A DNA stretch of 64,000 nt from Octopus vulgaris (lineage: Eukaryota). A program made the position numbers and the translations under genes. The notes beneath the pieces were generated by a model that was given only the letters and a program-made list of their open reading frames with translations, ran no database searches and had not been told where the DNA came from. Of the stretch, positions 55,330-64,000 are shown piece after piece (position 1 is the stretch's first letter; every line of letters begins with the position of its first letter). The stretch is taken from the NCBI GenBank assembly GCA_951406725.2, contig OX597814.1, forward strand, positions 78,864,001 through 78,928,000. Direction: 5' to 3'.

Positions 55330-56460
55330 TTCAGAAGTTCATCCGCCCTTTGACAGGTCTCATTTTTCATCCCACAGGGTGTCCAACAACACCCTCCTTG
55401 CCAAGCAAGCCTGGTGGGGTTTAGTCACCAACGACCTGACCATGGGACAGGTTGTACTGGATTACATCTTACCAGCAGCACTCAAGAGCTTCTTGGGCCA
55501 ATAAGTGGGGGTAGTGCAGTGCAGGCTAAACCCACTGAAAATTATTCATCTGCACAGGTACTTCCTGTACTCCAAATCTTAGTAAAATCATTCAATTGGT
55601 TGGTTGGCAGAAACCTAAAAATGCACTTGTAACTTACTCTAAAATGTCTCAAACAGATTCAGTAAATGGCAAAAAAGGCTTGGGAATGTCAGGGGAACAG
55701 GTCTGGCTCGGCAGGTGTCCCAGTGTATCACAGGCTGAACCCGGTCATCATCCTGCCACTGTGGTCAAACATTCTTCAAGAAAAAGTAAAAATAAACATC
55801 CTTTGAATTTTGGTTGTTTGAATGTGCACACACTTCTTGATGATAATTTTAACAAGAGTCCAGAAAGGTGTACTGCACTTATTGCAGGTGAGTTCAAGAA
55901 ATATTCCCTTTATATAGTTGAGCTCTCTGAAACTTGTTTCTCTGGTAAAGGTCAAGTAAATGAACCTACTTATGGACATACTGTCTTTTGGAGAGGCCTA
56001 CCTAAGGGTCAGCGTAGAGAATCTGGTGCTCGGTTTGCTCTCAAGAATACATTAGTATCCTCCATTGCAGGGCTTCCAAGTGGTATATCTGAATGGATCA
56101 TGTCATGCTGCATTAAACTGACAAAAGGTAGGTTTCTTACTGTTGTCAGTATTTATGCACCAACAATGTCCCATTCTGATGAAACTGTAGGACAGTTTTA
56201 TGATGATCTAGCACAATTATTGAGGAAAGTACCAATTTCTGACAAGCTGGTCATATTGGGAGATTTCAATGCAAGAGTTGGAAAGGACTGTTTCATGGCT
56301 TCTTTTAGGTTGACATGAGATTGGAAAATGTAATAAAAATTGAGTAGCTCTATTGACATTTCATACTGAGAATAATCTGGTTGTCACCAACACTCTGTTT
56401 AAGCAGAAAAATAAATATAAAACCACCTGGATGCACCTAAGATCTAAGCACTGGCAACTC
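55330..56460 (+). mobile_element. RTE-clade LINE 5' portion: 5' UTR plus apurinic-endonuclease domain pseudogene
   Basis: ORF 55596-56318: GCLNVHTLLD...RCTALIAGEFKKYSLYIVELSET...SIYAPT...FYDDL...VILGDFNARVGKD, continuing after a frameshift as NNLVVTNTLFKQKNKYKTTWMHLRSKHW. Confidence 0.92.
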
Positions 56461-59160: not shown

Positions 59161-60084
59161 TAGCAGCTGTTCAGTGTACTATTTACTAGATGGATAGTAA
59201 ATCTGATAGACTTACCACCAAAGGTAGGTTCAATGTCTATCTGCCTGTCTCTCTCTCTATATATATATCACTGAATCAAGGTATCAACCAGATTACTGGA
59301 TATATACACCACTTGAAAATAAATATCAAGCTGGATTGATAATGTATTTTAAAAATACTTTTTAAAAAACACACAATGCAAGTTGAAAATTATAGAGTGG
59401 AATCAAATGCAAAACCTAAAGCAAAATATGAACATTAGTATTCCTTTTTATTTTGTATATCAGTATTTTAGGTTTAAGAGAAACGATGTGATTGAACTAG
59501 CTCCATTTTACACAGGTTCTGCAGTAATAAAGCAGTTATTTTTTCAGATGCTATTATTGTTAAGAACTACATGTGCAGGTTTGTAATATTAAATCTGCCA
59601 ATCAACACCACAGAGGTCACATCTGTTGATGGATGGTTGAGGTTTATTAATAAAGATAGTTTCTTTAATCCTTAAATTTCCAATATTCTATTCTGTAATT
59701 TTGATAGATTGTAATATCCTGGTTGTTACATTTGCTAAGACTTTAACATTCCTTCTTTGGCATCTTCTGGAAGTGCATCAACCCATCCCTAACTCCTGTA
59801 GTTCCCAATTCTTCATTTTACAAAACAATTGGTCTAAAGACATAGCATAACTTTACATAGAGAAAGTTTTTATTATTAGCTCTCTGATCCATGTAAGCCT
59901 AGAAAAGTGAATATTACATAATATTGAAGATGAGCGTCACTTTGTGGTAAGAAACTTACTTCCCAACCACATGGCTCCAGATTCAGTCTCACTGTGTGGC
60001 ATCTTGGGTATCTTCTGCTGTAGCCTCAGGCTGACCAAAGCTTTGTGAGTGGATTTGATAGACAGAAACTGAAAGAAGCTTCTC

Positions 60085-60132
<48 letters not shown>

Positions 60133-60950: not shown

Positions 60951-61158
60951 ATCTTCTACAATAACCTTGGGTTGACCAAAGCTTCATGAGTGGATCTGGT
61001 AGACAGAGATTGGAAAGTAAAATACATGGTCATCTTTGTGTACAGACATATCCCTTGCATCCTTCTTCAGCTGAGCATTCCTAATCTTGTGGGCTCGTGA
61101 GTGCTGGTGCCCCGTAAAAAGCACTCATGTCAGTGCCACTTATACTGGATTTCAGAAT

Positions 61159-61726
61159 GTCTGTTGGCTATTTTTTCTTTCTCACTAGACCGCTGGTGGC
61201 GAAATAATTTCTATTGAATTTTTTGCTACCCTGATATTGATTAATTAATGATTTTTTGGCTAATTCTGAACTTATATCAGCAGTTTATATTTGCTGCTGA
61301 TAAGTTGGCGCGATGACGGTAGATTTTGAAAATTTAGAGTATATATTCCCAAGGCATCGATGCTGTTGCCTTGTGGACTATTTATTCCTCCTGGCTTCTT
61401 TGCCGATGAGATGGGCCAGTGGTAAATTGACTTGATTAAATTTAATTTAATTTAATTAAGCTGGTTTGCCAAAAAGTACGTCGAAACTATGCATAGTCCA
61501 AAGATTTTAAGGGTAAATGATTTTAATTTTCCTTTGATTTCTGAATTACTACTATTTAGCGGTTTGAGTATTGCTGCTCGTTTTAGTGAGTTGAATGGCC
61601 TATTAAGGCCATTCCTTAATATTATTGTTGAATGTACATTATATAGTCTGTTGGCTATTTTTTCTTTCTCACTAGACCGCTGGTGGCGAAATAATTTCTA
61701 TTGAATTTTTTGCTACCCTGATATTG

Positions 61727-61728
<2 letters not shown>
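61159..61728 (+). mobile_element. Retrozyme/Penelope-pLTR-like non-coding unit: 487-bp monomer with 83-bp direct terminal repeat and internal hammerhead
   Basis: 61159-61241 is identical to 61646-61728; hammerhead at 61397-61504; several internal hairpins; CpG-rich; ends at (TA)n. Confidence 0.75.
61397..61504 (+). ncRNA. Type I hammerhead ribozyme motif (U4C core variant, extended stem II)
   Basis: UCUUUG-CCGAUGA-[GAUG...UGGUAAA...CUUGAUUAAAUU..AAUUUAAUUAAG...UUUGCCA...CGUC]-GAAAC-UAUGCAUA-GUC^-CAAAGA; stem I is 6 bp perfect; palindromic stem III ACUAUGCAUAGU; predicted cleavage after 61498. Confidence 0.8.
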
Positions 61729-61754
<26 letters not shown>

Positions 61755-61757
<3 letters not shown>

Positions 61758-62190
61758 AGTTCAGCAAAATTTAGATTCAAATGAATATGGTACTTAAGTT
61801 AGATGCACCAGAATTTTGTATGGTGTTATCCATATAAATCCATGGGGTGATTATAATCAAAATAAGCAACAAGAATATCTTCGGTAATTTGGTATGATTG
61901 TTTCACGCTACATCATTTTATTAAACATTGTAAGTATTACAACAGTTTTAAAATGTTGAGCAATCATCAGTCATTTATAGAGGTTTTCTATTAATACATA
62001 TTTTCATATTAATTTTCATATTATTGAAAATTAAAATGAAAATATGTATTAATGGAAAACCTCTATAAATGACTGATGATTGCTCAACATTTTAAAACTG
62101 TTGTAATACTTACAATGTTTAATAAAATGATCTAGCGTGAAACAATCGTACCAAATTACTGAAGATATTCTTGTTGCTTATTTTGATTTT
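61755..62190. mobile_element. Penelope-like fold-back element between (TA)n tracts; 153-bp inverted arms, each with a hammerhead motif
   Basis: Arms 61855-62007 / 62036-62188 (4 mismatches by eye). Plus-strand motif CUGAUGA (62073-62079), long stem II, GAAAC-AAUC-GUA (62139-62150); mirror motif at 61890-61973 on the minus strand. Confidence 0.72.
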
Positions 62191-62220
62191 ATATATATAT
62201 ATACACACACACACACATAC

Positions 62221-62990
62221 AGTTCTAGGTAAATTCCATCAGGTAAATTTCACCATAGGTAAATTCCACCATAGTATATTCCACCATGGTAAATTCCACC
62301 CACTAATAATCACTGTGGTCAGTTTCTCTAGACTGTGGGTCAAAACCGATATTATTTAATCTGTCTATCTCTCAAGTCTTGAGATAGAGAGAGAGAGAGA
62401 GAGAGAGTCTCAAGGCGAGATAGAAAATAATCTTTATAATCTACTTGAATGAGATGGGATCACTTTAATGTACTCCCATTCAAGCAAGAATCTATGAAAA
62501 AGTCTCATCACAAAATTTCAAAAATAATATAATTAAGGATAAGGAAAGAAAAGATTAAATTTTAGCACACATTTTATTATAACAATAGAATAAAAATAAC
62601 AGTGAATACATTGTGAAGTAGAGTTGGGATAAGAAAGTTTAATTTACTTAAAAAGAAATTTCTTAAGACAAACTGTATGCAATACTCCTTAAAAATTGCA
62701 GAGGATTTTCATTTTGATATTCCTGAACTAGCTTATTCAGTCATGCATTAATAATTTGATAGGTCTTTTTTTTTTGTTGTTGAGTCTCCATGTCGAATGT
62801 GTGCAATTTTTGTCTGGCTTAATCCCTCCTCAGATTTAAGGGCAGTGCATAGTCTCCACAAATTTGGATGTGTGGATGTTAGTAATGAATGCAAAGCATT
62901 GTGGGACCCTTCTAAATAATGATTTTATAATGATAATAATAATAATTTCAGCTATGATGAAATTTACTATGGTGGAATTTACCTGTCACC
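62221..62990. mobile_element. Non-autonomous DNA transposon with subterminal ~15-bp tandem repeats (Mutator/fold-back-like)
   Basis: Left end has about 5 units of GGTAAATTCCACCAT; right end has inverted ATGGTGGAATTTACC units; possible degenerate 9-bp TSD CACACATAC / CACACAAAT. Confidence 0.6.
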
Positions 62991-64000
62991 CACACAAATA
63001 TATACACATATATTTACATAAATGTAGATTTAGATATGTACCTACATACATACATACACACACACACATACATACATACACACATGCATGCATCCTTATA
63101 CATATACACTTGTATGTCATTGGTACTATTGTTTCATCCTTAATTAAAGCTGATGAATAAGCATAAAAAATATTAAGGGCCAATACAATCAGCTTGAAGG
63201 TGCTGCTACAGAATGGCCAAAGTAGAATAACTGAAACTAATAAAAGAGTGAAAGAACACCAACACAGATTTATAAAGGTACACATTTGCACATTGATAAA
63301 TATATCATCATCCTCATTTAATGTCTGTTTTCCATGAGGGCATGGGTTAGGCGGTTTGACTGGAGCTGGTAAGCCGGGAGCTGCATGAGGCTATACATAA
63401 AAAACATCCATACTTATAAATGAAACTTATTTAAATCGGTGCAGGCGTGGCTGTGTGGTAAGAAGCTTACTTCCTAACCACATGGTTCTGGGTTCAATCG
63501 CACCGTGTGGCACTTTGCGCATGTGGCTTCTACTATGGCCTCAGGCTAACCAAAGTCCTGTGAGTGGATTTGGTAGATGGAAACTGAAAAACGCCTGTCA
63601 TATATGCATATATATAAATATATATGTGTGTGTGTGAATGTCTCTATGTCTGTATTTGTCCCCCTATCGTTGCTTGACGACCAATGTTGGCATGTTTACA
63701 TTCCTTATAACTTAGTGGTTCAGCAGAAGAGACAGATAGAATAAGTACTAGGCTGACAAAGAATAAGTCCTAGGGTCGATTTGTTTAACTAAAATCCTTT
63801 AAGGTGGTGCTCCAGCATGGCTGCAGTCAAATGACTGAAACAAGTAGAAGAATAAAAGAAATGTATTTTGATAGTCACACCTTATACACATATTCATATA
63901 CGTATTCACATATACTCACCCCAACAATACACATGCAAAATTATGATATATCAAGATTCATTGGCATCACATTCTATATGCATTTAAATTACTGCTGAAA

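Follow-up and report, generated by a model that had tools for sequence, protein, structure and literature searches.

An ORF-less hammerhead family in the Octopus vulgaris genome carries the insertion footprint of Penelope elements

The window, by which we mean the whole 64,000-nt stretch of Octopus vulgaris contig OX597814.1 analysed here, contains on its plus strand a full 487-bp non-coding unit with 34% GC (61159-61645; unit position 1 is 61159). The only stop-to-stop frames that overlap it are two of 81-82 aa, and its earlier description as lacking a meaningful ORF stands. The exact direct repeat reported before is also there: 61159-61241 equals 61646-61728 (100% over 83 nt, period 487). 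The upstream copy of this redundancy (61159-61241) is the 5′-truncated end of a single arm. The downstream copy (61646-61728) is a "tail" that runs from one 3′-end site, site A, to a second, site B, and terminates at site B (unit 83-87). Site A is AT-rich and lies at 61622-61645 (unit ~464-487); it was read through in the window copy and is not its end. We infer that reverse transcription of the window copy started at site B and that its insertion target was the (AT)14 microsatellite at 61727-61754, the TA-repeat terminus already assigned to the unit, which is shared with an unrelated adjoining element. Neither an inverted arm nor a target duplication was seen with the window copy at 61159.

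The monomer is predicted to be strongly structured, its fold having a z of -6.2 against 100 shuffles. Three hairpins singled out in the preliminary description were located (61276/61294, 61350/61367 and 61593/61607). Two are conserved: ATCAGCAG/CTGCTGAT at 61276-61301, and a hairpin at 61593-61614 immediately 5′ of site A. The third, at 61350-61373, holds a motif that is kept across subfamilies (unit 210-216) and is mutated in the window copy. All three are on the plus strand.

The copy had been called young on the strength of its retained CpGs. The CpGs are indeed kept, at 11 per monomer, but its own subfamily has a mean pairwise divergence of ~6% and the youngest subfamily is another one. 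Eleven rare differences set the window copy apart from its subfamily majority, two of them inside the redundancy, and both of these are present in both repeats. The two repeats differ at 0 of 83 sites, which would have a chance of ~0.025 if the other nine changes post-date insertion; rare changes in both repeats without a single difference between them point to a variant template, or to later conversion. Two private changes at 61271-61275 add complementarity to the opposite arm of the hairpin at 61276-61301 and resemble templated (quasi-palindrome) correction. The window's allele at unit 113/117 has one match genome-wide, that is, no sibling copy shares it.

Several other repeats lie nearby. 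At 61756-62195 a second, unrelated hammerhead element adjoins the window copy. It consists of head-to-head arms (61852-62018 and 62025-62191, 96% inverted) with a tail of ~96 nt on the left arm only, which likewise terminates at the (AT)14. Matches to its core pattern number 1,469, some copies share more than 1 kb of upstream sequence, and no attached ORF was seen in 30 loci. The second element and the window family may share a helper, since both have tails near 100 nt. A SINE-like dispersed repeat is present in three copies that are 78-83% alike (59934-60126, 60951-61015 and 63445-63641), and a 15-bp tandem repeat of ~5 copies is found at 62226-62300. A 259-aa frame at 55539-56318 is, by eye, what we take to be a LINE apurinic-endonuclease fragment.

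The unit's type I hammerhead spans 61397-61504 on the plus strand, and the parts first proposed for it were all verified. Stem I pairs 61397-61402 with 61499-61504 and is followed by the core CCGATGA (61403-61409; CCGAUGA in RNA, a U4C variant), a long stem II (61410-61482), GAAA, and a palindromic stem III (61486-61497). The predicted cut falls between 61498 and 61499. Rfam gave no hammerhead match at E≤10, likely due to the long stem II, so the ribozyme call is based on motif and covariation. Among 21 representatives, 96% of stem I-III cells are paired and 9 of 12 pairs have changed on both sides; none of 500 shuffles was as high, and in slid controls the share of paired cells is 26-38%. A shuffle control may be surpassed by sequences that are simply related, but the contrast with the slid alignments, together with how many compensations arose separately, speaks for selection on the predicted hammerhead fold. 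Stem III occurs in four versions across the family, each palindromic. The predicted cost of the active fold over the minimum rises from 0.6 kcal/mol for the 108-nt motif to 5.3 when 30 nt of flank are included and 9.8 for the whole 570 nt, which suggests that flanking RNA competes with the active hammerhead fold.

The core change has a history of its own. In the tree, C4 arose at the base of the window's cluster and was kept through two later clusters, and U4 came back in two descendant lineages. This reversion is mutationally easy, as C4 lies within a CpG. U4C is a natural hammerhead variant of a viroid, with considerably lowered activity in vitro according to the passages available from PMC3088659, and the viroid hammerhead cited there has the identical core change. 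In contrast to the viroid case, the Octopus family carries U4C through three successive genomic subfamilies before those reversions.

The unit belongs to a large family. We estimate roughly 1,500 hammerhead cores in the 2.8-Gb genome; searches for exact stem III patterns found 1,052 and 470 matches that do not overlap, against 0 and 13 for the reversed patterns, and of 86 matches inspected, all those listed lay within family sequence. A DNA search with the unit, in which 40 of 2,563 candidates were scored, returned top candidates 83-96% identical. Sorting 58 distinct full units gave 14 clusters, which are 70-95% identical to the window unit and form a ladder-like tree, with unit lengths of 459-496 bp across subfamilies. 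The cluster of the window copy is of intermediate age. Loci of the youngest cluster are 96-100% identical to their nearest neighbour, except for one basal member at 83%. GC is 33-37% in five units, and all five predicted circular folds are 61-66% paired, with z from -4 to -11 on only 12 shuffles each. Units also occur in tandem, with 30 direct core pairs 480-505 bp apart and arms of up to seven units; the window copy itself has one hammerhead only.

The unit is present in assembled contigs of three presumed-RNA runs and one unlabelled run, and such contigs are uninformative on expression or circles. Rare variants summed over seven subfamilies show no A>G excess that would mark RNA editing (A>G 90, T>C 136, about equal per covered base). 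The upstream regions of 20 U2 genes gave no significant profile match to the unit. The spacing ATCAG...AAAATT loosely resembles unit 117-178, a likeness noticed post hoc, and no clear peak of 5′ ends is seen at 179.

How the family inserts can be read from its ends. We mapped the first 100 of 946 internal-motif matches to 83 arms, after six duplicate rows were dropped and with one arm counted twice. The 3′ ends are concentrated at two places, 48 at site A (unit ~464-487) and 28 at site B (unit ~80-105), with 7 elsewhere; the two sites are both AT-rich and ~90-100 nt apart. The 5′ ends are scattered. A larger, non-random set, which includes top matches and dimer matches, comprises 210 distinct insertions of well over 1,000. 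In it, 91 are simple head-to-head insertions: 75 join an A end to a B end, 13 B to another end, 2 A to another end, 1 B to B, and none A to A. Exactly one B end is thus present in 88 of 91 (p 5e-23 against independent ends). TA repeats follow 240 of 300 3′ ends. Genome-wide copies had been expected to have circularly permuted ends or tandem arrays; the arrays were found, but the 3′ ends are fixed at two sites.

These one-tail, head-to-head, TA-flanked ends are the Penelope "tail" footprint. Penelope elements have a tail at one end only in the portions of PMC8557442 and PMC3846280 at hand, and the family has, besides its single tail, fixed 3′ ends, 5′ truncation, an inverted 5′ copy and a (TA)n or AT-rich target. 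It departs from the Penelope pattern in tail length, ~90-100 nt where 30-40 bp is the rule. Three young autonomous Penelope families of the same genome, each with RT and GIY-YIG (L131, L133 and L277), likewise have two 3′ ends and TA flanks, with tails of 31-39 nt. In Poseidon, according to the available text of PMC11167929, the tails arise because the RT can start at two internal sites and both strands are nicked. Head-to-head copies may also form by another route, self-priming on an antisense template (PMC3846280, in part).

Is the unit simply the end of a longer Penelope element? The alternative raised at the outset was a partial tandem Penelope pLTR. Its architecture, pLTR and tail, is borne out, while the expected ORF is missing; the retrozyme and pLTR readings are compatible with each other. 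A stricter version, that each unit is just a pLTR stump left by an autonomous Penelope whose ORF-bearing copies lie outside our sample, is favoured by the complete Penelope end architecture, by the inspection of ~210 of well over 1,000 insertions and by a partial Penelope sample (the best 150 scored, in a genome that holds more families). A tblastn search with ORFs from six Penelope loci matched in 7 of 144 loci, some at the same place, and in 1 of 20 more. At three of these loci, read base by base, the Penelope pieces are separate neighbours in microsatellites; at three others the piece is opposite in orientation or runs off separately, and L025 and L259 were assessed from coordinates alone. 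Where checked, no RT/GIY-YIG ORF is continuous with the unit. Long arms always pass into another unit instead (28 of 191 passes complete a full turn), and subfamilies only 70% alike still keep a unit length of 460-496 bp. On this evidence we regard the stump explanation as very improbable.

A helper that could act on the unit in trans was sought among the Penelope sequences. No match to the unit was found in the three young Penelope families or in nested ORF pieces, and comparison of the unit with 20 GIY-YIG loci, 39 ORF-downstream regions and 30 further loci revealed no sequence likeness beyond nested insertions. Intact ORFs are numerous in two of the three families (up to 781 and 775 aa). 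L131 has an upstream ORF of 359 aa, and L133 carries a hammerhead-like core, CCGAAGA, of the CCGA type as read by eye. A youngest-subfamily insertion, L241, is split between unit 166 and 170 by ~3-3.5 kb with an inverted tail. The gap was considered as an ORF and rejected, the sequence being host DNA; the split is possibly a rearrangement during or after insertion.

Our preferred reading, which we hold with somewhat better than even confidence, is that this ORF-less hammerhead family is pasted into (TA)n by a borrowed Penelope-type RT/GIY-YIG enzyme, probably from circular monomer RNA, and that the window copy is a single-arm, 5′-truncated insertion. Tandem loci would be transcribed, and the hammerhead would cut out monomers that are then ligated into circles. 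The enzyme would nick both target strands, prime one at site A and the other at site B, and circle the template, being about equally likely to fall off at any point. For the window copy, synthesis would have begun at site B and broken off 570 nt later. The more specific form of this model is put forward tentatively, at slightly less than even confidence: the RNA ring made by the ribozyme would be reverse-transcribed in rolling-circle fashion by a Penelope enzyme, with priming of the two strands at two different fixed sites ~90-100 nt apart on one template.

Arm lengths and haplotypes bear on the template. In the youngest haplotype, 56 arms contain 1, 2, 3, 4, 6 and 7 cores in 34, 10, 7, 3, 1 and 1 cases, and the lengths fit a geometric distribution with a continuation of 0.44 (p 0.49). 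Insertions as a whole range from less than 0.5 to ~9 units; one, L242, has ~6.8 and 2.6 units head to head. The retrozyme interpretation had leaned on the 1.17-mer at the window as the signature of one turn round a circle. That argument fails, as 1.17 is merely where copying stopped, while the interpretation itself is upheld for a dispersed, ORF-less, tandem-forming hammerhead family with a Penelope footprint. In the youngest cluster, of the variants that every unit of an insertion carries, 47 are diagnostic, being found at other loci as well, and six are private to a locus; five of these six are on both arms. Among partial variants, 37 are private and in one unit, four are private and in some units, and 28 are also seen at other loci, nearly all of them changes in T-run length. 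Single-unit changes prevail in the window's older cluster, with 122 private and 61 recurring at other loci; the recurring ones may reflect recurrent mutation or junction misalignment. Together, the lengths and the single haplotype within each insertion fit a monomer template that was copied over and over. Its simplest form would be a circle, and the data favour a circle or a re-copied monomer.

The tandems might instead be DNA-level products of single insertions, through slippage or unequal crossing-over. Private variants are shared by some units only at L207 (two of five and four of five units) and L242 (two of ten), which fits later local conversion or expansion. Multimeric arms nevertheless retain exact A and B ends, 5′ truncation and head-to-head joins, and in several young insertions both arms are multimeric. 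DNA-level growth is to our mind extremely improbable as the source of the tandems.

A linear template deserves more weight. In this scheme the same Penelope-mobilised family is copied from an uncut read-through multimer, or from a monomer re-copied by jumps, and the hammerhead serves transcript processing or dimerisation. Uncut RNA is the main substrate of the Poseidon enzyme in vitro in the available sections of PMC11167929, and 8 of 9 Xenopus retrozyme dimers were without cleavage in the accessible text of a preprint (bioRxiv 10.64898/2026.07.22.740005); both count against the circle. Most arms are short, the 34 of 56 with one core. At L227 the template switched inside one multimeric arm from unit 198 to unit 60, at a short microhomology, so template jumps do occur. 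Fifteen of 155 5′ ends gather at unit 230-241, along the 5′ margin of stem I (p 0.002 uncorrected for 41 bins), and this cluster may represent pausing or a transcription start, the latter fitting a linear RNA. On the other hand, geometric arms reach seven units, and no longer source array was found among 100 of the 121 youngest-haplotype sites listed. Private variants are common to all units and both arms. Of the family's 205 complete hammerheads, 204 have an unscarred, intact cut junction, in a count biased to intact cores. We judge a linear template unlikely overall.

The circular reading has weaknesses of its own: the absent peak of 5′ ends at the cut site, the long tail, the lack of a helper match among the Penelope families examined, the low activity reported for U4C in vitro, and the recurring single-unit variants of the window's older cluster. 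Only 1 of 83 5′ ends lies within 2 nt of the cut site, with no sharp peak at unit 341. Stops at unit 341-375 occurred in 22 of 101 passes, comparable to two other hairpins (11 of 36 and 5 of 24).

On every testable feature of its sequence the family belongs to the animal non-LTR retrozymes, or non-autonomous Penelope elements, and cleavage and a circle are predicted for it. For metazoan non-LTR retrozymes, the text available from Cervera and de la Pena 2020 (PMC7229834) demonstrates circRNA and cleavage and proposes Penelope as mobiliser. Like those elements, the Octopus family has a unit of a few hundred bp with low GC (below 45%), no ORF, one type I hammerhead per unit with a palindromic stem III, tandem units, and a self-paired predicted circle. 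The Octopus unit measures 459-496 bp, whereas theirs, in the portion at hand, are 150-450 bp; it also differs in its very long stem II, U4C in several subfamilies, and mostly single or head-to-head insertions. The main text of PMC7229834 makes no mention of octopus. A search of titles and abstract openings found no description of a cephalopod retrozyme; paper supplements, which were beyond its scope, may list the host.

Vertebrate retrozymes are derived from PLE pLTRs in the available text of Li, Clavereau and Pollet (the preprint cited above). The Octopus family resembles them in forming monomers, dimers and multimers, in a length within their 51-972 bp, and in co-occurring with Penelope. In Xenopus 24 of 57 families match known elements there, nearly all PLE pLTRs, whereas the Octopus unit has no match to the autonomous families examined. 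That text samples no mollusc, favours DNA-level array growth, and leaves insertion ends out of its analysis. With EN+ Penelope-like elements and the Poseidon PAc (available parts of PMC8557442, PMC3846280 and PMC11167929) the family shares 5′ truncation, partial tandems, an inverted 5′ copy, a one-end tail, an AT-rich or (TA)n target, a hammerhead near the 3′ end, and two internal RT starts. It differs from them in having no RT/GIY-YIG ORF, a tail of ~90-100 nt rather than 30-40, and arms of up to seven units.

This kind of element is already known; distinctive here are the long tail and long stem II, the spell of U4C in the core, and the absence of a parent match among the autonomous families examined. 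The one-tail-per-insertion rule bears on the mechanism of Penelope integration. The family predicts two sites of priming, one on each strand, multimer lengths in geometric proportion, and a single haplotype per event, and these predictions are addressable with the intact Penelope ORFs of the same genome. The return of animal retrozyme circles to the genome is a proposal in the Discussion of PMC7229834, and the preprint, in its available text, describes the evidence on the life cycle as limited. If the rolling-circle reading is true, the Octopus family would provide genomic evidence for the proposed integration step of retrozymes, and a weakened U4C core would have been tolerated through several generations of master elements.
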